NCBI GenBank assembly: GCA_030265965.1
Contig: JAJDHA010000001.1
Location: 65,394-129,393 of the forward strand
Source: Odoribacter sp. OttesenSCG-928-L07
GTDB lineage: Bacteria > Bacteroidota > Bacteroidia > Bacteroidales > BM520
Direction of reading: 5' to 3'
Length of the DNA stretch: 64,000 bases
Position numbers and translations under genes: made by a program. How positions within the stretch are numbered: position 1 is the stretch's first letter; the number at the start of each line of letters is the position of its first letter. The notes under the pieces were generated by a model that made no database searches, had not been told where the DNA came from, and saw only the letters and a list, made by a program, of their open reading frames with translations. Positions 14,778-55,708 of the stretch are shown here, piece after piece.

Positions 14778-15563
14778 TCAATACCTTTGTACCAAAATAT
14801 TGGAGCGGTAATCGATTCCGAGCAGTTCGGCGCCGTTTGATTTGTTCATTGCAACTTCAAGATATCCGTGCGAACCGAAAAGAACAACAATATCGGCTTC
14901 TTTTGCATCTGAATATCCGGTGGATATTTTTCCGATTTTATTGGACGTAACTAATATCTCATATGGGGATTTCTTTACAAAATTTTGAAATATTTCTTTA
15001 GTAATATTTGTAATAATATTTTGATAATTGTCTATTAACAATATGTGTCCTTGAAGTATATCTCCATTAATAATGGGTTGAAATGTTATGTAATTCTTTT
15101 TAAATCCTTCTTGTTTACGAAGATATTGCGAATAATTTTCACCTGCAGCAATCAAAATAGCAATTTCTGCAAAGACATCTTTTGTAGAAAATGTAAAAAC
15201 CGGAGATTCCTGTATAAAATCTATTTCATAAATGCTGACTTCTTTATTATAAAACACGATAGGCAAAATACCATTATCAGCGCAAATGAAAAATTGGTCA
15301 TCGGCTTTTACTAAAATATGAGGCGTCTCAATTGAGGCTTCCGAATTAACACCAATGATGTGTATTGTACCTTTTGGAAAAAATTTGTAGCTGTTACTCA
15401 ACACAAAAGCAGCTTCACGAGTATTGAAAGGCGTAATATCATGACTTATGTCGACAATATTTACATCAGGCAATCTCGAAAATATTGTGCCTTTAATAGC
15501 AGCAACATAATGATCTTTATTTCCAAAGTCTGTAAGTAATGTTATAATTTTTTTTACCATCAA
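14778..15563 (-). CDS. SAM hydrolase / SAM-dependent halogenase family protein (DUF62)
   Basis: N-terminal ITLLTDFGNKDHYVAAIKG family signature; 261 aa. Confidence 0.8.
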   Translation of the reverse strand: MMVKKIITLLTDFGNKDHYVAAIKGTIFSRLPDVNIVDISHDITPFNTREAAFVLSNSYKFFPKGTIHIIGVNSEASIETPHILVKADDQFFICADNGILPIVFYNKEVSIYEIDFIQESPVFTFSTKDVFAEIAILIAAGENYSQYLRKQEGFKKNYITFQPIINGDILQGHILLIDNYQNIITNITKEIFQNFVKKSPYEILVTSNKIGKISTGYSDAKEADIVVLFGSHGYLEVAMNKSNGAELLGIDYRSNILVQRY

Positions 15564-20207: not shown

Positions 20208-20224
20208 TGAAATGACAACCCAAT

Positions 20225-20248
20225 CTTCAAATCTTCAAATCATCAACC
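20225..20248. repeat. 8-mer array (TCTTCAAA)x2 plus a degenerate unit; reverse complement of the TTTGAAGA family
   Basis: tcttcaaa tcttcaaa tcatcaac. Overlaps the deoC stop codon and its last codons. Confidence 0.8.
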
Positions 20249-28033: not shown

Positions 28034-28043
28034 AAATTAAAGG

Positions 28044-28072
28044 CAAAAAAGAAGGGGATTCTTGCATCCCCT
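28044..28072 (-). terminator. Intrinsic-terminator-like hairpin in the rimP-nusA-infB leader
   Basis: The minus strand reads AGGGGAT-gcaaga-ATCCCCT followed by TCTTTTTTG. It ends about 10 nt before the rimP ATG. Confidence 0.55.
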
Positions 28073-28108
28073 CAAAATCAACATCTTAATCATTATAAAT
28101 TTGCGCTG

Positions 28109-28116
28109 CAAAAATA
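28109..28116 (-). promoter_or_regulatory. -7 box TATTTTTG upstream of the rimP leader hairpin
   Basis: Exact TAnnTTTG match on the minus strand, 75 nt upstream of the rimP ATG. Confidence 0.4.
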
Positions 28117-28164
28117 ATATAATTTTTTAAAATATGCAAGTTTTTTGTTGTAAAAAGCTTGAAA

Positions 28165-28227
28165 GTGACGGGTGACGGGTGACGAGTGATGGGTGACGAG
28201 TGACGGGTGACGGGTGACGAGTGACGG
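28165..28227 (-). repeat. Heptamer array 1: (GTCACNC)x9 on the minus strand
   Basis: The + strand reads gtgacgg gtgacgg gtgacga gtgatgg gtgacga gtgacgg gtgacgg gtgacga gtgacgg. Lies 14 nt downstream of the tRNA-methyltransferase stop. Confidence 0.95.
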
Positions 28228-33798: not shown

Positions 33799-35589
33799 CT
33801 ATTCGAAATAATAAGTTTTATCTTTTATTTTCTTTTTCAGAATATCTGAAGCCTCATCTGGATTAGATTCGTAAGCTTTTTCCCAATATTCGAGCGCTTT
33901 GGTTGCTTCATTAAGTTTCCATTTTGTGTCTCCGAGATGTTCAAGGATTACGGTTCTGTCGTCGCCATCGTACTTTAATGCCTCTTCCAAATATCTCTCA
34001 GCTTCTTTATAATTTCCTCTCATAAACAATGCCCAAGCGTAAGTGTCTAAATAATAAGAACTTTTCGAATTTAGCTCCACCGCTTTCTTTCCCATTTCCA
34101 CCGCTTTATCCAAACTCATATTTGAAGTACTTAAATAATAGCTGTAATTATTAAGTAAATATGCGTTATCATAATTTAGTGCCAGCGATTTGTCATAATT
34201 ATCGAATGCCTCAGTTTTATTATTGAGCTGATAATAACAGTCGCCCAACATCATATAAAAATCAGCTTTAAGCAGGTCGTTATCCACAATCATAATTGAG
34301 CCTGTTTTCAGAGTTGAGATAGCTCCTTCATAATCCTTTTCAATATATTTTGCTAAGCCGTTGTAATAATAAAACTCCGGAATTAACGGGTACAATTCAA
34401 TTGCTTTATTCGATAAACTTATTATTGAGTCGTAGTTGTTGATTGTTGATTCAATGTAAATTAGGTTCAAATAAACAGAAGGATTACTCAATCCTAATTC
34501 GCGAGTTTTGTAAAAACCTTGTTTTGCCATTCCAATCTGATTATTCTGCAGATAGAAATCACTGAGCATCGCAAGCGACACAGGGTCTTCGGGGTGAGTA
34601 TCGCTAATTGTTAATAATAGTTCAAATGCTTCGCGATTATTGGTGGTATAAATTTCTTCGTAAGAGTAATATTTGAGAAATATTGAGATTTTAGTTTTTG
34701 CATCTAATTCAGGAGATGCGAATCCTAACATTAATTCTTCATAAGCCCTTGTATCGTTTTTAGATTTTCTGTAATATTCTGAAAGAGTGATATGAACGTA
34801 TGGATTGTTTGGTTCCATTTCAGCAATCTTATTATAACATTCTAAAGCTTCTTTTTCTTTTCCGTAATTCAAATATAGTTCAGCAAGCATTGAAATGTAT
34901 TTTGTATTGTTTGGATAAGCATCACAAAGTCGTTTCATTTCCGCTATAGCTTTATTTTTTTTATTTTGAAGATCATAAATTCTAGCAATCTTCATACTTA
35001 TCTCCTCGTTAATGCCCATAACTTCTTCCAATTTTGCCAACTGTTTTAAAGTCTCATCATAATTAGTTGTAAGAAGTAAAGCATTTGTATAATTAAATAC
35101 TGCTTCGATATTTGTTGGGTCTAATTCAATAATTTTTTTGTGCAGAGCGAGTTCTTCCTTATTTGCCGGTGTTGTGCTAATTAAGCTAACAAGGTTCATT
35201 AAATAGAAAACATTCTTATTATTGAGTTCAACAGCTTTTCTTGCAGCTTCAACAGCGCCTTCAGTATTGTATTTTAAAAGATATAATTGCGAAAGTTCGT
35301 AATATGCTGCGTCATTATTCTGGTCAAGTTTTATTGCCTGTTCAAATAATTTAATGGCATTATCAGTATCCCCAGTTATCTTTGCTGCAACAGCATCAAT
35401 AAAAACAGAAGTTTTTTTAATTTCTTCCGCCGTCATTGGTGTAGAATTAAGGTCGACTGGAATTTTTACTTGTGCTAATAATGAGTTACAAGTGAAAAGT
35501 ATTGCAAATAAAAGAGTTGTTAAGATTCTTATGCCCCTAAATCCCCTAAAGGGGACTTTTTGATATTTTATTATTGTAAAATTTGTCAT
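33799..35589 (-). CDS. Tetratricopeptide-repeat protein
   Basis: Multiple TPR units (A..YYELSQLYL..., A...Y.KA.E..P.N). The N-terminal signal-like segment is preceded by residues encoded by a 28-nt repeat element. Confidence 0.8.
   Translation of the reverse strand: MTNFTIIKYQKVPFRGFRGIRILTTLLFAILFTCNSLLAQVKIPVDLNSTPMTAEEIKKTSVFIDAVAAKITGDTDNAIKLFEQAIKLDQNNDAAYYELSQLYLLKYNTEGAVEAARKAVELNNKNVFYLMNLVSLISTTPANKEELALHKKIIELDPTNIEAVFNYTNALLLTTNYDETLKQLAKLEEVMGINEEISMKIARIYDLQNKKNKAIAEMKRLCDAYPNNTKYISMLAELYLNYGKEKEALECYNKIAEMEPNNPYVHITLSEYYRKSKNDTRAYEELMLGFASPELDAKTKISIFLKYYSYEEIYTTNNREAFELLLTISDTHPEDPVSLAMLSDFYLQNNQIGMAKQGFYKTRELGLSNPSVYLNLIYIESTINNYDSIISLSNKAIELYPLIPEFYYYNGLAKYIEKDYEGAISTLKTGSIMIVDNDLLKADFYMMLGDCYYQLNNKTEAFDNYDKSLALNYDNAYLLNNYSYYLSTSNMSLDKAVEMGKKAVELNSKSSYYLDTYAWALFMRGNYKEAERYLEEALKYDGDDRTVILEHLGDTKWKLNEATKALEYWEKAYESNPDEASDILKKKIKDKTYYFE
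35533..35560 (+). repeat. 28-nt hairpin element copy inside the annotated 5' end of the TPR gene
   Basis: gcccctaaatcccctaaaggggactttt, identical to copy 1. Confidence 0.85.
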
Positions 35590-35744
35590 AATTGTTAATA
35601 TTCAATTGTAAATGGATCGCTACGCTTGTACGGGGTTAAATGTGTAATGCCTGCTGCATTTTATCCATTTTATCCATCTCTATATTCCGATCCGTCTAAA
35701 TTTTTGCGTTAAATAGCACATTTGCTAATCATCACATCATCAAA

Positions 35745-36176
35745 TCATACTCCCGTAGATCCAAATCCGCCTTCGCCTCTCGAAGTTTCGTCGAGATTAT
35801 CAACAAGATTCCAGTCGGCTCTTTCGTGTTTGCTGATTATCATTTGAGCTATTCTGTCGCCGTCATTAATGACAAACGTTTCTTTTGATAGGTTTATTAT
35901 TATTACGCAAATTTCACCACGGTAGTCGGCATCGATTGTGCCGGGAGAATTTAAAACAGTTATTCCTTTTTTGATTGCGAGTCCGCTACGTGGTCTAACT
36001 TGCGCTTCGAAACCTTTGGGTAGAGAGATAAATAATCCGGTTGGAATTAAAGTTCTTTCCAGCGGTTCCAAAGAAATCGGACTTTCTAAGTTGGCACGTA
36101 AATCCATTCCTGCCGAAAACTCAGTTTCGTATTCCGGAAGATTGTGTTTTGATTTGTTGATAATGTTTATTTTCAT
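35745..36176 (-). CDS. dut: dUTP diphosphatase
   Basis: Motifs [16 protein letters not shown] and [10 protein letters not shown]. Start moved to MKINII because the longer track ORF starts inside the heptamer array. Confidence 0.93.
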
Positions 36177-36193
36177 TGATTTGATTTTTTTGA

Positions 36194-36256
36194 GTGACGA
36201 GTGACGAGTGACGAGTGACAAGTGACGAGTGACAAGTGACGAGTGACAAGTGACGA
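36194..36256 (-). repeat. Heptamer array 2: (GTCACTY)x9 on the minus strand
   Basis: The + strand reads gtgacga x3, gtgacaa, gtgacga, gtgacaa, gtgacga, gtgacaa, gtgacga. Ends 17 nt from the dut ATG. Confidence 0.95.
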
Positions 36257-36277
36257 ATAATCATTGTGAGTATTCAT

Positions 36278-36412
36278 TTTATCGACTTTATCGGCTTTAT
36301 CGGCTTTATCAGTTTTATCCATTTTATCGGCTTTATCGGCTTTATCGGCTTTATCAGTTTTATCCATTTTATCGATTTTATCGGCTTTATCCATTTTATC
36401 CACTTCATCCGA
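36278..36412 (-). repeat. 9-mer array 1: (NNNGATAAA)x15 on the minus strand
   Basis: The + strand reads tttatcgac, tttatcggc x2, tttatcagt, tttatccat, tttatcggc x3, tttatcagt, tttatccat, and so on. Shows a higher-order 36-45-nt period. Overlaps the flippase stop codon. Confidence 0.95.
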
Positions 36413-37880
36413 CCCTTCTCCCTTTTACCAAAGGCTTTATCTCCTTCAAATAAACCACAATAATAAATCCTGCAAAGAAAAACGTGTTGCAGATTATCTT
36501 TATTAGTGTTGATGGATAAGGAATATATAAAGTAATAAAATAAATTGCTAATGCAAAAATAGTGTAAGCTGAAATTGTTTTGAGGTCGTAATTGATAGGA
36601 TAATATTTTCTTCCCCAAATATACGACAAGATGACCATAACTAAATAGCACGCAACGCTTGCAATTGCCGATGCCATATATCCGATAACCGGAATAAATG
36701 CAAAGTTTATGATTAAAGTAACTAATGCGCCAATAATTGATTGATAGGCGCCGTATTTTGTTTTGTCGGTAACTTTATACCAGATCGATTGATTGTAATA
36801 TACGCCGAGAAGTAAATTGGCAACGAGTATTATTGGTACGATTTTTAACCCTTCGTAATAAGCCGAGCTTTCTAAGAATTTGAATAAATCTATATATAAT
36901 GTAACGCCCAAAAAGATTACCCATCCGAGGATTACAAAATATTTCATTATATCGGCATAAGTTTTTCGAACATCTTTGCTATCGTCTTGTGAAAAGAAAA
37001 AAGGCTCAAAAGAATAGTTGAATGCCTGAATAAATAAACTCATAAAAATGGCAATCTTATAATTAGCACCGTAAACCCCAATTTGATGCATGGCATTTTC
37101 ACCTTCCGGAACTAAAAACTTTAATAATATCTTGTCGATGTTCTGATTAATTTGTCCGGCAAACCCTACAACTAATATAGGAAGAGCGTATTTCAGCATC
37201 TGTTTTAATAAAGTGAAATTTATCCTGAACTTAATTTTCTTTATTTCAGGATATAACAATATTAATACAATAATATTTGCAATAAGATTTGAGGTAAATA
37301 CATAACAAATTCCAACTGCAGGATTGTAAAGAAATCTGAAGAATGAATCAGGGTTATTTAAGCTTAACGGTCGTAAAACCAAGAAGAAAAGAAGATTCAA
37401 TCCGATATTTATTCCAATGTTTATAAGTTTTAATGTAGCAAATCGGAGCGCTTTATTTTCTTTTCTAAGATATGCAAATGGAATTGCTGTAAATGCGTCT
37501 ATTGCAACGATAATAGCAAGATATAAAATGTATTTTTCTTTTCCGGGATAACCTAATGTGTTTGTTATCGGATTGAGAAATAATACAACTAATAAGATGA
37601 ATATCAGTGAACTTGAAAATATTGAAGAAGCACTCGTGCTATATACATCATTACTATTGGCATGTTTTTTTGAAAATCTGAAGAATGCTGTCTCCATTCC
37701 GTAAGTCAGAAATATCAGTAAAAAAGCTACATAAGCGTATAAATTATTGATGATTCCATATTCTTCCGGTGGAAAAAGGTGGGTGTACAGCGGGAATAAA
37801 AGAAAATTTAATGTTCTTCCGATAATGCTGCTTAGTCCGTAGATTGCCGTTTCGCCGGCGAGCTTCTTAAAGGGATTCAT
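36405..37880 (-). CDS. Oligosaccharide/polysaccharide flippase (MOP superfamily, Wzx-like)
   Basis: 491 aa with about 14 TM helices; N-terminal GETAIYGLSSIIGRTLNFLL family pattern. Confidence 0.75.
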   Translation of the reverse strand: MNPFKKLAGETAIYGLSSIIGRTLNFLLFPLYTHLFPPEEYGIINNLYAYVAFLLIFLTYGMETAFFRFSKKHANSNDVYSTSASSIFSSSLIFILLVVLFLNPITNTLGYPGKEKYILYLAIIVAIDAFTAIPFAYLRKENKALRFATLKLINIGINIGLNLLFFLVLRPLSLNNPDSFFRFLYNPAVGICYVFTSNLIANIIVLILLYPEIKKIKFRINFTLLKQMLKYALPILVVGFAGQINQNIDKILLKFLVPEGENAMHQIGVYGANYKIAIFMSLFIQAFNYSFEPFFFSQDDSKDVRKTYADIMKYFVILGWVIFLGVTLYIDLFKFLESSAYYEGLKIVPIILVANLLLGVYYNQSIWYKVTDKTKYGAYQSIIGALVTLIINFAFIPVIGYMASAIASVACYLVMVILSYIWGRKYYPINYDLKTISAYTIFALAIYFITLYIPYPSTLIKIICNTFFFAGFIIVVYLKEIKPLVKGRRVG

Positions 37881-38248
37881 TCTTCGGCAAGTAATTTTTC
37901 GGCAAGTTCTTTAATTCGAATTAGTTTTTCACGAACAATGATGTCTTTATCAGTAATATCGATGCTTTCAACTTTTGCAATAACCTCTTGTTGTTCACCC
38001 GTTTCTAAAGGAATTTTCGATTTTAATGCTTTTCTTGCTCCTTCGAGAGTGTACTTCTGCTTTTTAACAAGGGTGTGAATTTTTTCAATATTATCAATAT
38101 CTTTTGCAGTATAATATCTTACACCTCTTTTGTTTCTTTTAGGTTGAATATATTTTGGAAACTCTGTTTCCCAGAAACGAATCAGCGACTGAGAAAGATT
38201 GAATTTTTCAGCAACTTCACTTATAGTATAATAGAGTTTTCCTTCCAT
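37877..38248 (-). CDS. MerR-family transcriptional regulator
   Basis: N-terminal HTH YTISEVAEKFNLSQSLIRFWE; 4-nt overlap with the flippase gene. Confidence 0.85.
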   Translation of the reverse strand: MEGKLYYTISEVAEKFNLSQSLIRFWETEFPKYIQPKRNKRGVRYYTAKDIDNIEKIHTLVKKQKYTLEGARKALKSKIPLETGEQQEVIAKVESIDITDKDIIVREKLIRIKELAEKLLAEE

Positions 38249-38257
38249 TTTTCAACA

Positions 38258-39226
38258 TTAATCCATTGTTTGCGTAGGTATTTCCGAAAGTTGGAGCATT
38301 GTCTCGTATTCTTCGGGAGTAATATCGTTGTAGAAATAATTTATCGGATTAACAGCTTTTCCGTTTTTACGAACTTCGTAATGTAGATGCGGACTGGTTG
38401 ATTTTCCTGTATTTCCAACATAACCAATAATCTGACCTCTTTTCACTTTGTCACCTTTTTTGACATTATATGCGCTAAGGTGTGCATATCGTGTTACGTA
38501 GCCGAAACCATGGTCAATAAAGATACAATTACCATAACCGCCATTTTTTGAGGCAAGAGTAACAACGCCGTCGCCGGTAGCAATAATCTCTTCTCCTACA
38601 GCCATTGAAAAATCAATACCCTCATGCATTTTTCTAACCTTGTAGAATGGATCTGTTCTATATCCGAAATGTGAAGCAATTCGTCTTACATCAGTTTCGC
38701 GTACCGGACGAATAGCGGGGAGACTGTTAAGCATCTGCTCTTTGTTGATTGCTAACTCATAAATTTCATCTAATGATGTTGTTTGTGCATACAATCTTCC
38801 GGTTAAAATATCTATCCTTTGAGCAATATCTGTTAACAATTCCTTGTTTTCATAATTTTCATACTTAGAATATCTATTGGTACCACCGTAACCACCTTGT
38901 CTAATATCAGAGGCAATTGGCTCAGTTTCGAAAATAATACGATAAATATTATCATCTCTATACTCAATATCAGCTAAAATTTCTTCTAACTCATTTAATT
39001 TATCATTAAACATCCTGAGTTCAAACTCGGTGCGATTGAGCTCTTTTCTTAAAATTTTCTCCCTTGGAGAATCTACAAGATAAAAAGCAATTAGCGCACC
39101 TGCACCGCCAAAAACTATGGCAATGGATAAGTAAAATAAAACGTTGTTAATGATTTGACGAACTCCTGTCTCTATTTTTTCATACGTCAAATTCGCCGGA
39201 TTGTATCTGAATTTATGTTTTGACAT
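38258..39226 (-). CDS. M23-family metallopeptidase (catalytically intact)
   Basis: N-terminal TM helix, coiled coil, HEGIDF (HxxxD) and SPHLHYEV (HxH). Confidence 0.9.
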   Translation of the reverse strand: MSKHKFRYNPANLTYEKIETGVRQIINNVLFYLSIAIVFGGAGALIAFYLVDSPREKILRKELNRTEFELRMFNDKLNELEEILADIEYRDDNIYRIIFETEPIASDIRQGGYGGTNRYSKYENYENKELLTDIAQRIDILTGRLYAQTTSLDEIYELAINKEQMLNSLPAIRPVRETDVRRIASHFGYRTDPFYKVRKMHEGIDFSMAVGEEIIATGDGVVTLASKNGGYGNCIFIDHGFGYVTRYAHLSAYNVKKGDKVKRGQIIGYVGNTGKSTSPHLHYEVRKNGKAVNPINYFYNDITPEEYETMLQLSEIPTQTMD

Positions 39227-39251
39227 TCGACAGCTTTTGATATCTAACTTG

Positions 39252-39259
39252 CAAAAGTA
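39252..39259 (-). promoter_or_regulatory. -7 box TACTTTTG for the M23 gene
   Basis: Exact TAnnTTTG match on the minus strand, 25 nt upstream of the ATG at 39226. Confidence 0.45.
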
Positions 39260-39271
39260 AATAATTTATTT

Positions 39272-39279
39272 TAATTTTG
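39272..39279 (+). promoter_or_regulatory. -7 box TAATTTTG for alaS
   Basis: Exact TAnnTTTG match, 39 nt upstream of the ATG at 39319. Divergent with the previous box. Confidence 0.45.
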
Positions 39280-39318
39280 CACAATTTTTTAATCTAAAAT
39301 GTTAAAACTTATATAGTA

Positions 39319-41943
39319 ATGACTTCAGCTGAAATTCGACATACTTTTCTATCTTTTTTTGCTTCTAAAGGACATGTTATTGTGCCTTCTGCTCCAATGG
39401 TAAATAAAACAGACCCAAATTTGATGTTTACTAATGCGGGAATGAATCAATTTAAAGATATTTTCTTAGGTAATAAACCTATTGTTAGTCCGCGTGTTGT
39501 TGATTCGCAAAAATGTTTAAGAGTCTCCGGAAAACATAATGACTTGGAACAAGTTGGTATTGATACTTACCACCATACAATGTTTGAAATGCTTGGAAAC
39601 TGGTCTTTTGGCGATTATTTTAAAGCTGATGCAATTTCTTATGCTTGGGAACTATTAACCAAAGTATATAAAATTGATAAAGATAGATTGTATGTAACGG
39701 TATTTGAAGGTGATAAGAAAGATGGATTAGAGCCTGACTATGAAGCAAAAGATCAATGGTTGAGGTTTATTGCTCCTGAAAGAATCTTATTTGGAAATAA
39801 AAAAGATAACTTTTGGGAAATGGGCGACCAAGGTCCTTGCGGTCCATGCTCTGAAATCCACGTTGATATTAGAGATGATGAAGAAAGAAAGAAAATTTCC
39901 GGCGCCGAATTGGTAAACAAAGATAATCCGTTGGTTATTGAAATATGGAATCTTGTGTTTATTCAGTATAATCGTAAAGCCGATGGAAGCCTCGAAACTT
40001 TACCTCATAAACATGTTGATACCGGAATGGGCCTCGAAAGATTATGCATGGTTCTCCAAAATGTTAAATCGAATTATGATACAGACGTTTTTCAACCGTT
40101 AATAAAATATATTGCTGAATATTCCGAACTAAAATATGGCGATAATGAGAAAACAGACATTGCCATGCGGGTTGTTGCCGACCACATAAGAGCTGTTGCA
40201 TTTGCAATAACAGACGGACAACTTCCGTCGAATACCGGCGCAGGTTATGTTATAAGAAGAATTTTAAGAAGAGCTGTACGTTACGCTTATTCTTTCCTAA
40301 ATATAAAAGAACCTTTCCTATTTGAATTGCTTAATGTGCTATGCGAACAAATGGGCGAAGCTTATCCGGAATTGTTGGAACAAAAATCTTTCTGCAAAAG
40401 AGTAATCGCTGAAGAAGAAACCTCTTTCTTGAGAACTCTCGAAACAGGAATCCAAAAATTTCATGCGTATATCAATGCTAATCCGGATAAAAATAATGTT
40501 GATGGCGATTTCGCTTTTGAACTGTTTGATACTTTCGGATTTCCAATCGACCTTACAGCTTTGATGGCTGCAGAATTTAATAAAGATGTGGATTTGAATG
40601 GTTTTACACAAAATCTTGAAAAACAAAAAGAACGTTCAAGGAAAGCTGCTGCACAAACTTTGTCGGATTGGATTTTTGTTGACGAAAATAAAGCTTTGGA
40701 TAACGAAAGTACTTTGACTTTCTGTGGTTACGATGATTGGGATGTAAATATCGATATTCTAAAACATAGAAAGGTTACAACAAAAGACGGTACTTTATAT
40801 CAATTAGTATTTCCGATGACTCCGTTTTATGCAGAAAGCGGCGGGCAAGTTGGTGATTGTGGAATGATTGTCAACGAACATGAAAGTGTTAAGATAATAA
40901 ATACTATCAAGGAAAACGACTTGAGTATTCATCTTGCTGAAAGTCTTCCTAAATATTTACATCTGCCTTTCAGAGCAATTGTCGATGTTGAACATAGGAA
41001 AGCAGTTATGGCGAATCACTCGGCAACACATTTGCTCCATAAAGCCCTACGCTCTATTCTCGGAACACATGTTGAACAAAAAGGTTCTTATGTTGGTCCG
41101 GATTACTTGCGCTTCGATTTCTCTCATTTCCAAAAATTGACAGATGATGAAATAATTGCTGTTGAAGAATATGTCAATGCATCTATTCGTGAAAATGTTA
41201 AAAAAGATGAGTTGCGCAATATCCCTATTGATGAAGCAAAGAAAAAAGGCGCAATGGCTCTTTTCGGTGAAAAATACGGCGATACAGTAAGGGTTGTCAG
41301 CTTTGGAGATTCTGTCGAACTTTGCGGCGGTACTCACGTAGAAGCAACAGGAAGTATCGGAGTCTTTAAAATTATTTCCGAAGGTGCAATAGCTGCCGGA
41401 ATCAGAAGAATCGAGGCTGTAACCGCAAAAGCCGCTTTCGATTATCTTAATCAACAAACTCATACAGTTCAAGAAGTTAAAAATCTTCTCAAAGTAAAAG
41501 ATGCTTTAAAAGGTGTGGAAAATCTTGTTGAACAAAATAATAATCTACGCAAAGAAATTGAAACGCTAAAACAAGAAAAATTGTCGGGAATGAAAGATGT
41601 TCTTTTGTCAAAAACAAAAGATATTAATGGTATTAATGTAATTGCAGAAAAAGTTGAGATCGACTCTTCTGCAATTAAAGACCTTGCTTTCGAATTAAAA
41701 CAAAATAAAGATAATCTTGCTATTATATTAGGTAGTAATCAGAATGGTAAAGCTGCCATTTGCATTGTCTTTACAGACGATTTAGTAAAGAAAGGTTTGC
41801 ATGCCGGCAATATCATTCGCGAAGCAGTAAAAGAAATTGACGGTGGTGGAGGAGGACAAGCTCATTTTGCTACCGCAGGCGGAAAATCACCGGAAAAAAT
41901 CGACATGGCAATTGCAAAAGCAAAAGATTTAATAATTATGTAG
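39319..41943 (+). CDS. alaS: Alanine--tRNA ligase
   Basis: Class II AlaRS catalytic core, editing-domain HSATHLLH and CGGTH motifs, C-terminal DHHA1-like GGGG domain. Confidence 0.97.
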   Translation: MTSAEIRHTFLSFFASKGHVIVPSAPMVNKTDPNLMFTNAGMNQFKDIFLGNKPIVSPRVVDSQKCLRVSGKHNDLEQVGIDTYHHTMFEMLGNWSFGDYFKADAISYAWELLTKVYKIDKDRLYVTVFEGDKKDGLEPDYEAKDQWLRFIAPERILFGNKKDNFWEMGDQGPCGPCSEIHVDIRDDEERKKISGAELVNKDNPLVIEIWNLVFIQYNRKADGSLETLPHKHVDTGMGLERLCMVLQNVKSNYDTDVFQPLIKYIAEYSELKYGDNEKTDIAMRVVADHIRAVAFAITDGQLPSNTGAGYVIRRILRRAVRYAYSFLNIKEPFLFELLNVLCEQMGEAYPELLEQKSFCKRVIAEEETSFLRTLETGIQKFHAYINANPDKNNVDGDFAFELFDTFGFPIDLTALMAAEFNKDVDLNGFTQNLEKQKERSRKAAAQTLSDWIFVDENKALDNESTLTFCGYDDWDVNIDILKHRKVTTKDGTLYQLVFPMTPFYAESGGQVGDCGMIVNEHESVKIINTIKENDLSIHLAESLPKYLHLPFRAIVDVEHRKAVMANHSATHLLHKALRSILGTHVEQKGSYVGPDYLRFDFSHFQKLTDDEIIAVEEYVNASIRENVKKDELRNIPIDEAKKKGAMALFGEKYGDTVRVVSFGDSVELCGGTHVEATGSIGVFKIISEGAIAAGIRRIEAVTAKAAFDYLNQQTHTVQEVKNLLKVKDALKGVENLVEQNNNLRKEIETLKQEKLSGMKDVLLSKTKDINGINVIAEKVEIDSSAIKDLAFELKQNKDNLAIILGSNQNGKAAICIVFTDDLVKKGLHAGNIIREAVKEIDGGGGGQAHFATAGGKSPEKIDMAIAKAKDLIIM

Positions 41944-41948
41944 GTTAT

Positions 41949-42029
41949 ATGGATAAAGTCGATAAAACGGATAAAATGGATAAAGTCGATAAAATGGATA
42001 AAACGGATAAAGTCGATAAAATAGATATT
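41949..42029 (+). repeat. 9-mer array 2: (NNNGATAAA)x9
   Basis: atggataaa gtcgataaa acggataaa atggataaa gtcgataaa atggataaa acggataaa gtcgataaa atagatatt. 27-nt super-period. Starts 5 nt after the alaS stop. Confidence 0.95.
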
Positions 42030-42042
42030 ACAATGTTTACTC

Positions 42043-42119
42043 GTCACCCGTCACCCGTCACTCGTCACCCGTCACCCGTCACTTGTCACCCGTCACCCGT
42101 CACCCGTCACTCATCACCC
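42043..42119 (+). repeat. Heptamer array 3: (GTCACYC)x11
   Basis: gtcaccc x2, gtcactc, gtcaccc x2, gtcactt, gtcaccc x3, gtcactc, atcaccc. 21-nt super-period. Confidence 0.95.
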
Positions 42120-42127
42120 AAATAAAC

Positions 42128-42135
42128 TAATTTTG
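42128..42135 (+). promoter_or_regulatory. -7 box TAATTTTG upstream of the PASTA-domain gene
   Basis: Exact TAnnTTTG match, 8 nt after the heptamer array and 49 nt upstream of the ATG at 42185. Confidence 0.45.
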
Positions 42136-42184
42136 TAACAATAAAAAAACCTCATAATAGGTTATTAATAATAAAAGTTTTATA

Positions 42185-43042
42185 ATGCAACGTTTTTTAA
42201 AATTAATCTCTAATGTTTATTTTTGGTTGCAATTTGTAATCGCTATAGCATTGATTTTTATTGTACTGTTCATAATTAAAGGCAGTTTAAAAAAATATAC
42301 CCGTCACGATAAAGAACTTGTGGTTCCTGTAATTGAAAATATGTATTATGATGATCTCGTAAACAGTTCTTATGGCGAGCTTTTCAGTTTTACCATTTCA
42401 GATTCGACATACAATGCATTATATGAACCCGGAATTATAATCAGTCAAAATCCAGTTGCCGGATCAAAAGTTAAACCCGGGAGGAAAATTTATCTTACTG
42501 TTTCTGCAGAGTCTCCGGGAGATGTACAAATGCCTAATCTGATAAATTTATCTGTGCGTCAAGCAATTAGTATCGTTGAATCTTCAGGATTGAAATTCGG
42601 TTCAATGGAATTTGTACCTTCGTTTGATAAAGATGCAGTTCTCCAACAAAAATGTAGAGATGTTCAGATTGAACCGGGAACTCTTGTGGTGAAAGGTTCC
42701 GTAATCGACATTGTTGTCGGTGCGGGTTATGACAGACCAATAACTCATCTGCCATTTATCTTAGGCAAAAATGCTAATGAAGCAAAAAACATTCTTAGAA
42801 GTATGTCGCTTAATATTGGTGAAGAACATTTCCACGATTCTTATGATATTAAAGAGGTCTTTGTTTATGGAACAGAACCCATCTGGACTGATACTACAAT
42901 GGTTAACCTCGGCGAATATATTAATCTGTTTTATACTGCTGATACTACTCTTATAAGAATCTCAATAGAAGATGCGTTAATAGAAAAAGATACTATCTTT
43001 GACGAATATTATTTCGATGAAGAAATAAATTTTGATGATTAA
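42185..43042 (+). CDS. PASTA-domain-containing membrane protein
   Basis: N-terminal TM helix followed by repeated PASTA-like units (VPNLINLSVRQAISIVESSGLKFG; LPFILGKNANEAKNILRSMSLNIG). Confidence 0.75.
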   Translation: MQRFLKLISNVYFWLQFVIAIALIFIVLFIIKGSLKKYTRHDKELVVPVIENMYYDDLVNSSYGELFSFTISDSTYNALYEPGIIISQNPVAGSKVKPGRKIYLTVSAESPGDVQMPNLINLSVRQAISIVESSGLKFGSMEFVPSFDKDAVLQQKCRDVQIEPGTLVVKGSVIDIVVGAGYDRPITHLPFILGKNANEAKNILRSMSLNIGEEHFHDSYDIKEVFVYGTEPIWTDTTMVNLGEYINLFYTADTTLIRISIEDALIEKDTIFDEYYFDEEINFDD

Positions 43043-43047
43043 TTAAA

Positions 43048-45027
43048 TTGAATTTAATGAAGAAATTAAATAAATTATTTGCATTTGTAATATTATGCTC
43101 ATTTGCCGGAATGGTTAATGCACAAGAAGTTATTACAAATATGAACACAAATCCGGTATTGCAAAAGAAAACAGCAGAAATCAAAATTAAAACTAAGTCA
43201 GTAGAATCAATTAATCTACCTTTTTTTGATGATTTTACTTATAAAGATGTATTCCCTTCACAATTGTATTGGCAGGATAAAAATGCTTACATAAATAATG
43301 ACTATGCATATCATCCTGTTAGTTATGGTGTTGCTACACTTGATGCGCTGGATGAAAATGGGAAGGTGCATTCTAATTTATATCCGGGGGTTAAAGAGGT
43401 TGCAGATTATCTGACATCACAACCAATTCGCCTTGATTCTATTTTTGGTACTGAAAATAGACTTTTACACGATTACGACTCTGTTTATTTTAGTTTCTTC
43501 TACCAACCTAATTATTGGGATGAAGCTTTGCTTGGATCCCAAGGCTTAAAAGGAGATTCTTTAGTTGTTGAATTTTACTCGCCTGCTGATGAAGAATGGT
43601 ATCATGTGTGGAGTACTGAAAGATTTCCTTTCGATAGTATTAAACCGGAAGAAAATAATGGCAGAACATTTATTGAAGTGATTATTCCAATCGTTGATGA
43701 AGATAGATATTTCCATGATGGCTTCCAATTTAGATTTAAAAATTATGTGACACTAACCGAAGGTAATTATTATCCCGGTTGGCAAGTGAATGGTAGTCAA
43801 TGGAATATTGATTATGTTTATTTAGATAGAGATAGAAGATTTAATGCATATTATAAGGATATTTGTTTCGTAAATAATGCAGGTTCTTTTTTAAAGAATT
43901 ACTCATCAATGCCGTATAATCAGTATTCTGTTAGCTTATTTACTGCTTTAGATGAAATGAGAGATAGTGTTCCTATTCTTATTTCTAATTTAGATAAAAC
44001 AGCAAATAATGTCGGATACGATTATATTGTTACTAAAAGCAATGGTGAGATAATTGATCATCAAGTTGGTGGTAGTGGTGTAATATATCCGTTTCATACA
44101 TCAGGGTATTATCAAAACGGAGAGTATATGCAACCTGTTTTAGATGGTGCAAAGTATTTCCCGCTAAGCACTTCCGCTGATTCTGCAGAATTTACAATTA
44201 CACATTACTTGACCTCTGATCTGGATTTCAAACAAAATGATACTATTTCATTTGTACAAAAATTTCATAATTATTATGCTTATGACAATGGCTCGTCAGA
44301 ATATAGTTATACTTTGAAAACAACAGGGAATGCAGAATTAGCTGTGCTTTTTAAAATTAATTCTGCAGATACTCTTCGAGCAGTAAAAATATATTTTAAT
44401 GATATTGCCGGCGCTGCATCTGAGTTTTATTATAATTTGCGCATTTGGAATAGACAAGATTTAAAACCTCATACTATTATTCATGAACAAGAAATTGTTG
44501 TAAAAAATGATAATCCTGAAAATGATGATTTTATAACTATTATGCTCGATAAACCCATTGTTATTAATCAGGAGAACTTTCCAAATATGGTATTTTATGT
44601 CGGACTTGAAAAACCATCAACGGAAAAAATGGCATTAGGATTTGATATATCTAAAGATAATTCATCTAATACTTACTATAATGTTACCGGTCAATGGGAA
44701 AGAAGTATTTTCTCCGGAACAGTAATGATTAGACCAGTGTTGGGAAAGAAGTTTGAACTTGCTTCAATAGAATATCATGAAGATAAAGAAAAAATTATTG
44801 TTTATCCGAATCCGGTTAAAAACGGCCAAATCAATATTAGAAGCGAAGTCGAAATAAAAAGTATATATATATATAATGGTTTTGGGGTTAAAGTTTATGA
44901 AAGTAATAATGAATTTACTTATAATAAATCTGTATCAATGAGTAACCTACGACAAGGCATTTATTTAGTAGTTGTTGTTGATAACAGAGGTCTGAAATAT
45001 ACAGAGAAAATTATTTTAATGCATTAA
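43048..45027 (+). CDS. T9SS-sorted secreted protein of unknown function
   Basis: Signal peptide ...SFAGMVNAQ. Type-A C-terminal sorting domain IIVYPNPVKNGQINIRS...GIYLVVVVD...IILMH. Confidence 0.8.
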   Translation: MNLMKKLNKLFAFVILCSFAGMVNAQEVITNMNTNPVLQKKTAEIKIKTKSVESINLPFFDDFTYKDVFPSQLYWQDKNAYINNDYAYHPVSYGVATLDALDENGKVHSNLYPGVKEVADYLTSQPIRLDSIFGTENRLLHDYDSVYFSFFYQPNYWDEALLGSQGLKGDSLVVEFYSPADEEWYHVWSTERFPFDSIKPEENNGRTFIEVIIPIVDEDRYFHDGFQFRFKNYVTLTEGNYYPGWQVNGSQWNIDYVYLDRDRRFNAYYKDICFVNNAGSFLKNYSSMPYNQYSVSLFTALDEMRDSVPILISNLDKTANNVGYDYIVTKSNGEIIDHQVGGSGVIYPFHTSGYYQNGEYMQPVLDGAKYFPLSTSADSAEFTITHYLTSDLDFKQNDTISFVQKFHNYYAYDNGSSEYSYTLKTTGNAELAVLFKINSADTLRAVKIYFNDIAGAASEFYYNLRIWNRQDLKPHTIIHEQEIVVKNDNPENDDFITIMLDKPIVINQENFPNMVFYVGLEKPSTEKMALGFDISKDNSSNTYYNVTGQWERSIFSGTVMIRPVLGKKFELASIEYHEDKEKIIVYPNPVKNGQINIRSEVEIKSIYIYNGFGVKVYESNNEFTYNKSVSMSNLRQGIYLVVVVDNRGLKYTEKIILMH

Positions 45028-45029
45028 TT

Positions 45030-46127
45030 ATGACTAAAAAAACAAGTAAGAATAAAGAAGAATTACTTGAAGAACAAAAATTTGATAACGAGCAACTTTC
45101 TGATGATGAGAATGATGAATTAGATCAAGAGGGAAGTTATTATGAACATTTTAATGTAATAGTTGATAAAGGACAGTCGCCAGTTAGAGTTGATAAATTC
45201 TTGTTTTCTAAATTGGAGAATGCGTCGCGAAATAAAATACAAGCGGCTGTCAAAGCAAGTTGTATTCTTGTAAATGGCACTCCGGTAAAATCAAATTATA
45301 AAGTAAAACCTCAAGATGAGCTTTCGGTTCTGATGCCGGAACCGCCGCGTGATACGGAAGTTATTCCGCAAGATATTCCCTTGGATATTGTATATGAAGA
45401 TAATGATATAATAATTGTAAATAAACAAAGTAATCTCGTCGTCCATCCTTCGTATGCAAATTATAACGGTACGCTATTAAATGGTTTGGTTTACCATCTA
45501 AACAAAGAAGGAAAAAACCTTAAACCCGAATTGGTACACAGAATAGATAAAGATACAACAGGTTTGTTGTTGATAGCAAAAAACCTTGAAGCTCAAAGTT
45601 TTTTAGCACAACAATTTTATGTGCACTCAATAGATAGAAGGTATCATGCGCTTGTTTGGGGTGATTTGGAAAATGATAATGGTACTATTATTGGAAATCT
45701 TTCGAGACATCCGAAAGACAGAAGAATTGTTGTCGTTTGTCCTGATGATAGAGGTCAGCATGCAATAACACATTATAAAGTTCTTGAAAGATTAGGATAT
45801 GTAACCTTAATAGAATGTAAATTAGAAACAGGAAGAACGCATCAGATTCGTGCTCACATGCAGCATATCGGACATCCTTTATTCGGTGACCCTACTTATG
45901 GTGGAAATGAAATAGTGAAAGGTACAACATTCAGCAAATACAAACAGTTTGTTTATAATTGCTTTAAGATATTGCCGCGACAAGCTTTGCACGCCAAATC
46001 CTTAGGCTTTATTCACCCTGCCTCAAATCAATTTGTTCAATTCGACTCAGAATTGCCTCAAGATATGACGGATGTTCTTGAAAGATGGAGAAAATATGTT
46101 GGCGCCGGTTGGAGAAGTGGCGATTAG
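45030..46127 (+). CDS. rluD: RluA-family 23S rRNA pseudouridine synthase (RluD-like)
   Basis: S4 domain (VRVDKFL) and catalytic HRIDKDTTGLLL. Acidic N-terminal extension. Confidence 0.9.
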   Translation: MTKKTSKNKEELLEEQKFDNEQLSDDENDELDQEGSYYEHFNVIVDKGQSPVRVDKFLFSKLENASRNKIQAAVKASCILVNGTPVKSNYKVKPQDELSVLMPEPPRDTEVIPQDIPLDIVYEDNDIIIVNKQSNLVVHPSYANYNGTLLNGLVYHLNKEGKNLKPELVHRIDKDTTGLLLIAKNLEAQSFLAQQFYVHSIDRRYHALVWGDLENDNGTIIGNLSRHPKDRRIVVVCPDDRGQHAITHYKVLERLGYVTLIECKLETGRTHQIRAHMQHIGHPLFGDPTYGGNEIVKGTTFSKYKQFVYNCFKILPRQALHAKSLGFIHPASNQFVQFDSELPQDMTDVLERWRKYVGAGWRSGD

Positions 46128-46139
46128 ATGAAAACTGAT

Positions 46140-46181
46140 GCTTCGACTTTGCTCAGCACAAGGCTTCGACTTCGCTCAGCA
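46140..46181 (+). repeat. Tandem duplication of a 19-nt word (GCTTCGACTTYGCTCAGCA), period 23 nt
   Basis: Read directly downstream of rluD. A related gcttcaacaagctcagc occurs at 60204-60220. Confidence 0.75.
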
Positions 46182-46337
46182 TTAGTAGTTGAAAATTGAA
46201 AGATTTATCTTTAGCTGATTTGATGTTTGATTTGATGTAAATTTCATTTAAAAACACAATAATTGCTTGATTGTCTCATGCTCAATGTGATGCATGTTGA
46301 AAATTTATGTTTTTTTAAGAAAAAAATCAATCAGATT

Positions 46338-46368
46338 TTTGCTTTTCTCTCCAAAATTATTATATTTG
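46338..46368 (+). promoter_or_regulatory. Full Bacteroidota promoter: -33 TTTG, 19-nt spacer, -7 TATATTTG (C25 peptidase gene)
   Basis: TTTG at 46338-46341 and TATATTTG at 46361-46368, 39 nt upstream of the ATG at 46408. Confidence 0.55.
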
Positions 46369-46407
46369 CAAATTGAATAATTTTTTTATAACCCAAAAAA
46401 TTTTAAT

Positions 46408-49400
46408 ATGAAAAAACTACTATTTTCCTTTACGCTTGTTTTAATAAGTGTTTTCACTTATGGACAAGTAAAGTCGATTGCCATGCAATCGAATGAGGTC
46501 AAGCAAGAATGCATTAAAGATAACTTTGAAGGCTTTAATGCTGTTTTTTCTTTTGACCACATTAATGCAGTTCCAATAAACACTGAAAAAGGAGATTTCT
46601 CTATCATTAATATTGATGGAGCGTTTCCTACAGGTAATGCTGGAACTCCTGAACTACCGGCGTTTCGTAAATTAATAGCCATTCCTCAAGGCGCTACACC
46701 TAAAGTTATTGTAAAGAGCTATACAGAAGAAGAGTATGATTTGAATAATTATTCTTGGAATAAGATTTTTCCAAAACAACCTTCTACAAGAAAAGATTTG
46801 GAACCGGAAGATATTATTTTTGTTTATGAAGAAGCAGCATACGCAACAAAAGGCTATGAAAGTAGAGAAGTTGCAGTTGTTGAAGAATTAGGAACAATGC
46901 GTAATATCAGAATTGGATCATTACAAGTAAACCCTATTGTTTATGATGCTGGTTCCAACAAAATTAAAGTTAGAAATAATATTGAAGTTGAAGTAGTATT
47001 TGAAGGCGCTGATAAAACAGCAACACAAAACTTATTCGAATCAACTTATAGTATTTATTTCGAACCTGTTTATAAACAATTCTTTAATAGAAATATCTAT
47101 GATGAACATCCAGATTTATACAAAACACCTGTTCACATGTTAGTTGTGGCTAACAGAATGTTTGAAGAAACTTTACAACCATGGATTGAATGGAAAACTA
47201 AAAAAGGATTCTACATGGATGTTAATTATACTGACGAAGTTGGAACAACCGCTAATGAACTTAAAACATTATGTCAAACAAAATATAATGATGGAGTAGC
47301 TAATGGACAAACACCTTCATTTGTTGTTTTGGTTGGTGACGTAGCACAGGTTGTTGCAAGTGCAAGAGGTAGTAAAACTTATAAAGATACAGACTTGTAT
47401 TATGGCTCTGTTGATGGAGATTATTTCCCTGATATGTACTACAGTCGTATGTCTGCAATAAACACAACCCAATTAGAAAATATCATTGAAAAAATATTGT
47501 ATTACGAACAATATCAATTTGAAGACCCAGCTTATTTGGATAATGTTTTGTTAGTTGCAGGTGCTGATGGTAATTGGAATCCAAAAGTCGGTCAACCTCA
47601 AATGAATTATGCGACTACATATTATTATAATGAAGATCATGGATTTGAAAATGTGCATAAATATCTAACCTCACCATATACAGGATGTTATAATAATCTT
47701 GCAAATGTTGGCTTTGCAAATTATACTGCACATTGTGGTGAAACAAGTTGGGGAGACCCGTCTTTTACTATTTCCGGAGTTAATGCACTAACTAATGTAA
47801 ATAAATATTTTGTTGCAATGGGAAATTGCTGTTTAGCAGCAGATTTTGGTTATGGCGAATGTATCGGTGAAGCTTTTATCAGAGGTAATAAAAAAGGTGC
47901 GGTAGGTTATATTGGTTCTTCACCAAGTAGTTATTGGGGCGAAGATTTCCATTTTACTGTCGGTGCTTATGCAGGATCAATAAGTACAGTTGCTACTCCA
48001 ACCATAGAAAATACCAGCGATGGTTGTTATGACTTATCCTTCAGAGAAGCAGACTTCCATTGTTTAAGTTCAATGATATTCGGCGGAAACTTGTCAGTTA
48101 CACACGCAAGTGCTACAGGATGTACAATGCACATCGGCGTTGAATATTATTGGCAAGCATACAATGTATTGGGAGATGGCTCATTAATGCCGTATTGGTC
48201 ACAAGGAGATGAAAATACAGTTTCTCACATGGAAATAGTTCCTATTGGAGTTGATTTTTATGAAGTATCAGCTATTCCGGGTTCTTATGTTGCAATATCA
48301 AAAGACGGCGTTCTTCATGGCGCTGCTTCAGTTGGCGAAACAGGAACAGTACAAGTACCATTGATACCTATTACCTCAGGTGGAGATGTTGATATCGTTG
48401 TTACTGCTCCGCAAAGAATACCTTATATTACTACTCGTCCGGCAGCTGCTCTTGAAGGAGCTTATATTGTTGCAGATGCATATCAACTTGCAGGAGACGG
48501 TATATTAAGCTACGGCGAAACAACCGAAATGGAACTTACAATTAAAAATGTTGGCGGCGACCCATCAGAATCAACAATTAATGTTGTTTTGACTAATACA
48601 GACGGTTTAGCAACTGTTATTGAAGGTACTGCTCAATATCCTATTTTAGAGGTTGGCGCTACAGCTACACAATCAGGATTTAGCTTTGAAGTTTCACAAG
48701 ATGTAAATAATGGACAAACAATTTATTTCGCTGCTGAAATAACTTGCGGCAGAGAAGTGTGGACAAGTAATATCGCTATTAAAGTGTATAAACCTATATT
48801 GAGCTATGAAACTATGGTATGGAAAAATAGCTTTAGCCAAGGTGAAAGCTTTGATATTATGGTAGAATATAAAAACAAAGGCGGGTATTTAGTTTCTAAT
48901 GTTGAAGCTACTCTTGAAACAACGAATGCAGATGTTACTATCAATGTTGCTGAAACTAATTTAGGGACAATTGCACCCGACGGAATAGGTTATGCAATAT
49001 TTAATGTTACTCTATCAGATGATATTTCTGAAAGCTCATCTATTGATTTTGTTAGTCATGTCTCTGGTGATGACGGAGTTATTACGGCTGAAGCTAATTT
49101 CTCCCTAACTAATAAATGTACTATGACCTTCAAAATGTGGGATTCATCAGGAGATGGTTGGGATAATAACGGCCGTATAAGTATTAAACAAAATAATGTT
49201 GAGATAGCTACTGTTAGACTTGAAACCGGAAATTACGGAACAACAACAAAAGATCTACCTACAGGAGAATTGGATTTTGTATGGATATATGGAAATTCTT
49301 ATGATTATGAAAATTCATTTGAGATATATAACTATAATAATGAATTAATCTATAAAACAAGTGGAACACCACAAGCAGGTTCGTTCTTAATATATGAAAA

Positions 49401-55624: not shown

Positions 55625-55708
55625 GTCACACGTCACCCGTCACACGTCACACGTCACGCGTCACACGTCACCCGTCACGCGTCACACGTCACCCGTCACC
55701 CGTCACCC
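55625..55708 (+). repeat. Heptamer array 4: (GTCACNC)x12
   Basis: gtcacac gtcaccc gtcacac gtcacac gtcacgc gtcacac gtcaccc gtcacgc gtcacac gtcaccc x3. Starts 8 nt after the fabD stop. Overlaps the ribF stop and last codons on the other strand. Confidence 0.95.

Follow-up and report, generated by a model that had tools for sequence, protein, structure and literature searches.

A nonamer–heptamer tandem-repeat block in the flippase–dut junction of a Bacteroidales operon, one of several copies of a dispersed mosaic

Heterocystous cyanobacteria carry short tandemly repeated repetitive (STRR) sequences with the heptameric units CCCCAGT, TTGGTCA and CAACAGT. In enterobacteria, repetitive extragenic palindromes (REPs) and bacterial interspersed mosaic elements (BIMEs) combine short modules in varied orders and orientations, occupy 3' and intercistronic spacers and are transcribed within operons; the REP units are imperfect, hairpin-forming palindromes mobilised by REP-associated tyrosine transposases (RAYTs). 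Here, we describe a composite of 9-nt and 7-nt tandem repeats between an oligosaccharide flippase gene and the dUTPase gene dut, in a 64,000-nt stretch of the Bacteroidales metagenome-assembled genome (MAG) Odoribacter sp. OttesenSCG-928-L07. This whole stretch is called the window below; coordinates are positions in it, and the block is read along the minus strand. With heptamers of the form GTCACNN and a Bacteroidales host, the element does not belong to the cyanobacterial STRR sequences. It resembles BIME/REP mosaics in that its modules are recombined in order and orientation, but the composites in the window contain no palindromes and are unusually unstructured.

Heptamer arrays with the units GGGAATC in Xanthomonas and GGGGAYT in Nostoc prefer gaps that separate aligned open reading frames (ORFs), at most 50 bp from stop codons and on the sense strand (PMC4692102). 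They also occur within the pec operon (pecE/pecF) and are transcribed, differ in length and sequence from one close relative to another, and are without known function (PMC4692102). The arrays described here, for which these heptamers are the closest known parallel, are likewise head-to-tail 7-nt units, mostly intergenic and also present inside operons. They differ in unit sequence, in the lack of G-quadruplex potential of the flippase–dut array (the complement of GTCACTY has no G runs), and in being coupled to nonamers via a conserved junction, as modules of a larger mosaic in a Bacteroidales MAG. TAACTGA heptamers are common to Beggiatoaceae, Cyanobacteria and some Bacteroidetes (MacGregor 2015, PMC4679880). 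The window arrays share with TAACTGA and the STRR heptamers a dispersed intergenic occurrence and a patchy distribution across phyla. Whereas TAACTGA is mostly found just 5' of start codons and has no described nonamer partner, the window arrays lie just 3' of stop codons, and the units are unrelated. Within the Bacteroidales, BrickBuilt of Porphyromonas gingivalis is a minisatellite-type MITE (miniature inverted-repeat transposable element) with 23-nt units, small terminal inverted repeats and promoter activity, located at least 49 nt from genes (PMC4596501). It resembles the present element as a dispersed, strictly intergenic and species-restricted repeat of a Bacteroidales host, with a spacer-less tandem body of variable copy number between a leader and a tail; two of the copies described below (L128 and L129) even have a conserved tail that reaches the next gene. 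Unlike BrickBuilt, the composites in the window combine 9-nt with 7-nt units, lack inverted termini and a promoter motif, and lie 1–16 nt from upstream stop codons. It is the units, the nonamer–heptamer coupling via a conserved junction, the absence of inverted termini and the position 1–16 nt from stop codons that set the element apart. Short-period arrays behind stop codons or in operons have thus been catalogued in Xanthomonas, Nostoc and Beggiatoaceae, and the present block adds a Bacteroidales case in which the ancestral state is fixed by comparison.

The flippase–dut spacer is 228 nt long (36177–36404) and holds the whole repeat block. Upstream lies the flippase gene (36405–37880, minus strand; Polysacc_synt by Pfam, homologues with 92–66% identity), which ends with a TGA stop codon at 36407–36405. 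One nucleotide past this stop, a nonamer array begins (36269–36403, minus strand) that comprises 14 exact NNNGATAAA (RYN-GATAAA) units at 36403–36278 and a degenerate fifteenth unit at its edge, ATGAATACT (36277–36269), with a higher-order period of 45 nt according to Tandem Repeats Finder (TRF). The junction ATGAATACTCACAATGATTATTC (36255–36277, 23 nt, minus strand) separates the last GATAAA from the first GTCAC. Next come nine GTCACT[T/C] heptamers with a 14-nt higher-order unit (36192–36254, minus strand) and an A-rich 15-nt trailer, AAAAAAATCAAATCA (36177–36191), directly 5' of the dut ATG at 36176. The arrays, detected by TRF (scores 91–221) and delimited by a register-exact scan, consist of uninterrupted head-to-tail copies of units within the 5–11-nt range, as in long simple-sequence repeats (SSRs) of the variable-number tandem repeat (VNTR) type; a 'long SSR' class goes back to Mrazek et al. 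2007, cited in PMC4679880. They are far beyond chance: 39 of the 65 GTCAC/GTGAC pentamers in the entire window fall within the 287 nt of the arrays. Among 55 nonamers, positions 4–9 (GATAAA) are nearly invariant and positions 1–3 follow R-Y-N (ATG in 18, GCC in 11 and GTC in 10, among others); among 56 heptamers, there is hardly any variation in GTCAC, position 6 being unconstrained and position 7 being C or T. These results bear out the layout described in an initial annotation of this DNA, namely a 9-mer array, a linker and a 7-mer array between flippase and dut, and the same arrangement after alaS. The linker and tail lengths given there (21, 17 and 13 nt) deviate slightly from ours and reflect the way of counting degenerate units at the array edges.

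The arrays are absent from the flippase–dut locus in all five related lineages compared, which were located through flippase homology. The gene order M23 peptidase–MerR–flippase–dut–TPR–DUF4292–M23 is conserved in the relatives. Between flippase and dut there are 10 nt in L004 (81% flippase amino acid identity) and 1 nt in L253 (66%), and the two genes overlap by 1 nt in L006 (71%) and by 4 nt in L251 (69%); in L003 (92%), the closest available relative, they are separated by 145 nt of unrelated, array-free sequence. Since flippase and dut overlap or lie within 10 nt of each other in four of the five relatives, the block is best understood as an insertion into an ancestrally tight operon junction (−4 to +10 nt). 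The window flippase has a C-terminus as long as that of its L004 orthologue, which indicates that its stop codon is ancestral and that the spacer invaded by the block measured no more than about 10 nt. The closest relative carries unrelated inserts of its own, of 145 nt in flippase|dut (L003 11462–11606) and of 201 nt in dut|TPR (12039–12239); both junctions measure at most 32 nt in the four other lineages, and they seem to accept insertions repeatedly.

The gene dut (dUTPase by Pfam; 35745–36176, minus strand) has no promoter motif of its own. We scanned for the Bacteroidota −7 box TAnnTTTG, which occurs 23–141 nt upstream of 13 genes with preceding gaps above 80 nt in the window, most such genes having one. 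The 228-nt spacer before dut contains no TAnnTTTG, and hence none at 20–60 nt 5' of the start codon, and none was found before the following TPR gene. The nearest upstream box, TACTTTTG (39252–39259, minus strand), lies 33 nt before the M23-peptidase gene and is a candidate promoter of an operon comprising M23, MerR, flippase, dut, TPR and further genes. No terminator-like site was detected in 36177–36404 or in the corresponding alaS-side region (41944–42127) with an intrinsic terminator test, and neither composite in the window contains inverted repeats of 8 nt or more. The RNA of the two blocks is less stable than that of dinucleotide-shuffled sequences (z +1.9 and +2.8), with 196 and 200 of 200 shuffles folding at least as well. 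Rfam returned only a tRNA at gathering score in the window, and nothing relevant at E ≤ 1 for the copies L128 and L129. Matches of the sigma-70 type within the arrays (TGGATA-16-TAAAAT) were disregarded, as that scan does not address the TAnnTTTG type of Bacteroidota and the matches follow from the repeat unit.

The absence of a promoter motif, hairpin or terminator from the block, together with the ancestral coupling of flippase and dut, supports the view that dut is an internal operon gene and that transcripts run across both arrays to reach it. The initial annotation had argued that the module leaves no room for a TAnnTTTG promoter and that dut must be expressed by read-through, and both points agree with the missing motif and with the overlap or 1–10-nt spacing of flippase and dut in four related lineages. 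Its claim that the arrays are not simple efficient terminators likewise accords with a block devoid of hairpins and terminators. It had further proposed a conditional (attenuating or processing) role or none at all; we find no indication of the former, the closest relative being array-free at both loci, and prefer the latter. A 228-nt repeat block can thus separate two cistrons without introducing a promoter or a terminator.

A second copy of the composite follows alaS (39319–41943, plus strand; alanyl-tRNA synthetase by Pfam; stop codon TAG at 41941–41943). Its nonamers (41949–42029, plus strand; eight exact and one degenerate unit) begin 5 nt past the alaS stop codon, and are followed by the 22-nt junction ATAGATATTACAATGTTTACTC (42021–42042) and by ten GTCACYC heptamers with a degenerate ATCACCC unit (42043–42119), all on the plus strand and determined by TRF, register-exact scan and, for the junction, alignment. 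The junctions of the two composites, ATGAATACTCACAATGATTATTC at flippase–dut and ATAGATATT-ACAATGTTTACTC at alaS, are identical at 17 of 23 positions, a score equalled by 6 of 20,000 composition-matched shuffles (~3e-4). This shows that the two composites are paralogous copies of one element, and that their shared architecture was inherited and not acquired convergently. The assumption that they represent two independent loci, made when the architecture was first noticed, is therefore not borne out. The array units have diverged between the copies (GTCACTY versus GTCACCC), as have the higher-order periods (45 nt versus 27 nt). Across the arrays, TRF found higher-order periods of 14, 21, 27 and 45 nt, which indicate duplication of blocks of units, and the divergence within the arrays is what such duplication after copying may be expected to give. 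Downstream of the second copy lies TAATTTTG (42128–42135, plus strand), the TAnnTTTG promoter motif of a PASTA-domain gene. The gap between alaS and this gene is 61 nt in L003 and 241 nt in the window, and the promoter box and leader of L003 align to the window sequence starting right after the last heptamer. Because the box is kept in this array-free relative, it marks the 3' edge of the alaS-side insertion, which thus lies between a stop codon and the next gene's promoter.

Unrelated loci carry these modules again, in varied combinations and orientations, as expected of a dispersed mosaic repeat. Probing a protein database with the array ORF, and then with a two-sequence profile, led to L128, on another contig of the same genome, and to L129 and L130, on contigs of Bacteroidales bacterium OttesenSCG-928-K22. 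In L128 and L129, nonamers (8 and 11 units) are followed by a 98-nt hairpin core (GGAAAGCCWAATTCCCCCTTTSAAGGGGGCAGGGGGATGTTCAGATAAACTCGTCATTGCGAGGAG...GCAATATGAAT), inverted heptamers GTGACRA (4 and 10 units) and a conserved tail of 75 nt that extends to the ATG of the next gene. Outside the arrays the two copies are ~95% identical, and the proteins encoded downstream are unrelated; copy number varies as in VNTRs in both arrays. Over 63 nt, the heptamers of L129 match window positions 36194–36256 with 100% identity, in the opposite relative strand orientation. The L128 copy is located not behind a stop codon but in an intergenic region of 765 nt between divergent genes. In L130, nonamers flank the hairpin core on both sides, and the element is inserted in the junction between a membrane fusion protein (MFP) gene and an ABC-ATPase gene of an operon. 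Such arrays can therefore travel as modules of a mosaic element common to two gut MAGs. The initial annotation had considered that order and polarity might be shared and possibly invariant, and had named composites of random order or orientation elsewhere in the genome as evidence to the contrary. For the heptamers, a different order or orientation was found, as L128 and L129 join nonamers to inverted heptamers across the 98-nt core. The composites in the window do not qualify as MITEs, given that they contain no inverted repeat of at least 8 nt and show no evident target-site duplication in comparison with the empty site of L003. Homology between the window junction and the L128 'tail' was not significant (p 0.04–0.8).

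A module 'CGTCATTGCGAG...GAAGCAAT' directly adjoins GTCAC/GTGAC heptamers in L128 (5640–5725) and in contig L008 (1949–2010). In L129, the first 8 nt of the module, ACTCGTCA, are reverse-complementary to each heptamer unit, TGACGAGT, but lie within the element. A general link between heptamer arrays and a 'GTCATTGCGAGG...GAAGCAAT' module was considered and rejected: it holds in L008, L128 and L129, but for only 1 of 138 metagenome arrays among the matches listed.

We consider it fairly probable that the block belongs to a lineage-specific dispersed tandem-repeat mosaic, selfish or neutral and carried as a passenger, not as a dedicated regulator, whose transparency to transcription and translation initiation would explain why it is tolerated. 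Its interchangeable modules would be RYN-GATAAA nonamers, GTCACNN heptamers and the G/C hairpin cores of other copies. Two paralogous composites of nonamers, conserved junction and heptamers would have landed in very short neutral spacers 3' of the flippase and alaS stop codons, and their arrays would then have expanded and diversified through slippage or duplication of multi-unit blocks. One of these insertions would have split the ancestrally overlapping or near-overlapping flippase|dut junction, with dut still expressed from an operon transcript that starts upstream of the M23-peptidase gene and passes through both arrays. Tolerance is explained by an insert that lacks promoter motif, hairpin and terminator, gives unusually unstructured RNA and ends in an A-rich leader before the dut ATG. 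It is conceivable, if doubtful, that an open frame between the flippase stop and the ATGA at dut also keeps ribosomes on the spacer. This frame belongs to a mechanically called bridging ORF (36173–36403, minus strand; GTG 36403 or ATG 36394), which opens 1 nt past the flippase stop, crosses both arrays and overlaps the dut ATG with its terminal TGA (ATGA). The bridging frame stays open in 28% of shuffles of the window sequence and in 4% for the analogous ORF of L130, the latter figure being ascertainment-biased because that locus was found via its called ORF.

Several observations weigh against a selfish or neutral mosaic. The GATAAA and GTCAC cores are near-invariant across the 55 nonamers and 56 heptamers, with variation at only 2–3 spacer positions, which could mean selection on a binding site or homogenisation by block duplication. 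Moreover, GATAAA lies on the coding strand of the adjacent gene in seven of seven nonamer arrays (window and L128–L130), and all four heptamer arrays of the window are sense to the upstream gene. Pure neutrality does not account for this polarity, which, however, is confounded with the direction of replication. The picture of the family is drawn from ~92 kb of two repeat-bearing genomes. Finally, the DNA of L003 is only ~77–79% identical to the window, so that 'recent and dispensable' is relative, recent meaning since the split from a different species.

An unlikely alternative is that the heptamer arrays are Rho-loading sites resembling Rho utilisation (rut) sites, and would act as a conditional attenuator at flippase|dut when the spacer is untranslated and as a terminator at alaS|PASTA. 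The sense RNA is C-rich and G-poor over 60–90 nt (C 35–51%, G 12–17%, with 16–30 YC dinucleotides per array), a resemblance to rut sites that is compositional only. Its low degree of structure relative to shuffles, as given above, the lack of intrinsic terminators at these gene ends and the placement of the four sense-oriented window arrays, 8–16 nt past a stop codon or right behind nonamers, would suit such a function. However, the heptamers of L128 and L129 are inverted, which makes them G-rich when read in the neighbouring gene's sense direction, termination at flippase|dut would cut off dut and the co-directional downstream genes of an ancestrally tight and essential-looking operon, and the array-free relative has no replacement terminator. 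GTCACYC arrays in metagenomes also lack polarity: among the matches listed, which include at least 138 arrays, 38 were sense and 37 antisense to the 5' gene by a crude count. These matches come mostly from unrelated organisms with 55–70% GC and none is from the present lineage; ORF calling is crude in high-GC DNA, and the survey therefore says little about the genome of the window.

We regard it as improbable that the arrays are docking platforms on which each 7- or 9-nt unit (GUCACYC, GAUAAANNN) seats one protomer of a sequence-specific RNA- or DNA-binding protein; if true, this would imply post-transcriptional or nucleoid-level control of the flanking genes. Invariant cores of 5–6 nt separated by variable spacers of 2–3 nt, in more than 100 units at several loci of two genomes, would fit such a platform, as would the constant sense orientation of the nonamers and the unstructured single strands. 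Binding of proteins to heptamer repeats has been proposed, though not proven, for Beggiatoaceae and Nostoc (PMC4679880; bioRxiv 10.1101/2022.06.06.494920). Against this stand the lack of a candidate protein, the functionally unrelated flanking genes (dut, alaS, rimP, fabD/ribF, MFP-ABC and secreted proteins), the absence of the arrays from relatives at the same loci, and a copy number that is free to vary between copies. The resemblance to DnaA boxes is weak, with two array units within one mismatch of TTATCCACA and no enrichment. A bolder proposal, which we hold to be comparably improbable, is that the mosaics are adapted to invade operon junctions as 'translationally transparent' mobile spacers, or that their cores dock an RNA- or DNA-binding protein of Bacteroidales unit by unit. 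It takes its basis from the fact that every nonamer array opens with ATG/GTG-GATAAA, 1–8 nt from the upstream stop codon. An insert with its own start codon and stop-free, unstructured arrays would then pass ribosomes on to the next cistron. Bacteroidales are not known to have Hfq or CsrA.

That the block is a genuine coding sequence for a small protein is very improbable. Such a protein would comprise a DK-rich repeat and then a VTRH(P/S)S(P/L) repeat, with 73–77 aa here and 58 aa after alaS. Open frames with ATG or GTG starts do traverse both composites, and the alaS-side ORF and similar ORFs of L128–L130 are listed by NCBI as hypothetical proteins. On this strand, however, all three frames of a heptamer array lack stop codons, as do two of the three frames of a nonamer array; the arrays are thus stop-free by construction, and ORFs arise in any case. 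The probability of an open frame in the window is 0.28 by shuffling, the heptamer array at 55 kb has no start codon, the ORF is absent in relatives and has no Pfam domain, and its database matches are low-complexity ORFs of unrelated high-GC organisms. The public 'hypothetical proteins' of 57–78 aa with DK and VTRHPSP repeats (IPPLKGAGGCSD...), at L007 5756–5932, L128 6001–6174, L129 6001–6201 and L130 6001–6237, are translated modules and probably spurious genes. In practice, such arrays break short-read assemblies, give rise to spurious hypothetical proteins like the DK-repeat and VTRHPSP ORFs in NCBI, and can mislead start-codon calls.

An assembly artefact is scarcely credible. An NCBI short-read contig does break within the nonamers on the flippase side, but that assembly has an identical composite after alaS, the same modules are present on other contigs and in another MAG, and the flanks are contiguous with conserved synteny. 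This contig (L007; GCA_030265935.1, JAJDGW010000029.1) is 100% identical to window positions 36302–47880 and carries identical alaS arrays, so these arrays are real; because it terminates within the flippase-side nonamers, the window's assembly is the sole source for the copy number there.

A search of 185,579 reference genomes, a set without the window's own genome, with the composite pattern gave a single match, in the heterocystous cyanobacterium Sphaerospermopsis kisseleviana NIES-73 (L001 5971–6052). Four copies of GAGATAAAC, 13 nt and five copies of GTCACCA lie there 78 nt past the stop codon of a 515-aa ORF, with the order and polarity seen in the window. This single case may echo the sharing between Cyanobacteria and Bacteroidetes noted by MacGregor. 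Fourfold GATAAANNN was common in viral contigs, largely in giant-virus bins and probably as coding DKx repeats, and is uninformative; the hairpin core was absent from the viral contigs. A plasmid collection gave no match to the L129 element, and a phage collection none to the window composite. A literature search on the core sequences returned nothing relevant, and neither dut, in forms of 143 and 158 aa, nor P0163 could be matched to a record. A DnaA-box cluster was rejected as a candidate: two array positions lie within one mismatch of TTATCCACA, and the window as a whole has 28 such sites against 21.7 ± 4.1 expected.

Further arrays occur in the window without the full composite. A two-unit nonamer array (GATAAAATG twice; 35657–35674, minus strand) lies in the dut–TPR spacer. 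A heptamer-only array of ~9 units (28163–28225, minus strand) starts 16 nt past a methyltransferase stop codon, upstream of the rimP promoter. In the rimP leader (28040–28160), 3' of this array, an TATTTTTG box is followed by a G/C hairpin that has a T run (GAGGGGATGCAAGAATCCCCTTCTTTTTT), an arrangement resembling an attenuator in front of the rimP operon. Twelve heptamers GTCAC[A/C/G]C (55625–55708, plus strand) make up the entire spacer of the convergent genes fabD and ribF, which were identified by Pfam. With fabD ending at 55616 and ribF at 55696, the array provides the ribF stop codon TGA and the last three codons, and there is no hairpin terminator between the genes.

The window also holds repeats of other kinds. 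TRF gave 69 rows for the window at a minimum score of 30 and 5 rows for the 21-kb syntenic locus of L003 at a minimum score of 40, the thresholds being different. A dispersed hairpin module, GCCCCTAAATCCCCTAAAGGGGACT, is found at 2325–2352 and 35535–35560 (plus orientation) and at 60150–60180 (reverse orientation), and its design of a C run, TTTNA, a G run and a second G run is the same as in the mosaic core of L128 and L129. The copy at 35.5 kb falls into a stretch of ~20 codons that opens the TPR ORF, as called mechanically, and that relatives do not share. TPR probably starts further downstream in reality, which would make the dut–TPR spacer longer than 155 nt. A structured-looking element of ~90–170 nt (TGATTATCCCCATAGGGGATYCCGAACGGTAGCCCGAKAATTGCC...CGCACGCCGTAGGTGTGCGACGAAA) occurs at 3817–3902, 14600–14728, 60130–60378 and 60416–60554 in the window and at 3360–3545 in L130 of the K22 MAG. 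Its copies share 85–89% identity, are preceded by 8-mer arrays and the hairpin module, and have no Rfam match at gathering score. Arrays of 8-nt units (TGAAGATT in both orientations, CCACATCA, GTTACGAG, AATCATCA and GAGATGAT) occupy intergenic spacers at 3789–3823, 4968–5003, 14566–14595, 14726–14780, 20222–20246, 35727–35748 and 60112–60143. In the convergent intergenic region 2382–2482, CCTCCGTG repeats are followed by a 35-nt match (94–97%) to the tail of L128 and L129 (CTGTTAATTCTGAAAATTATGTAATTCTGTCTAT). Unrelated heptamers were seen in L129 of the K22 MAG (AATCTGG, 12.6 copies, 4806–4893) and in the 39% GC metagenome contig L094 (GGTATTC and GATTACC types, 1–150). Several repeat-rich genomes thus hold multiple heptamer families side by side.

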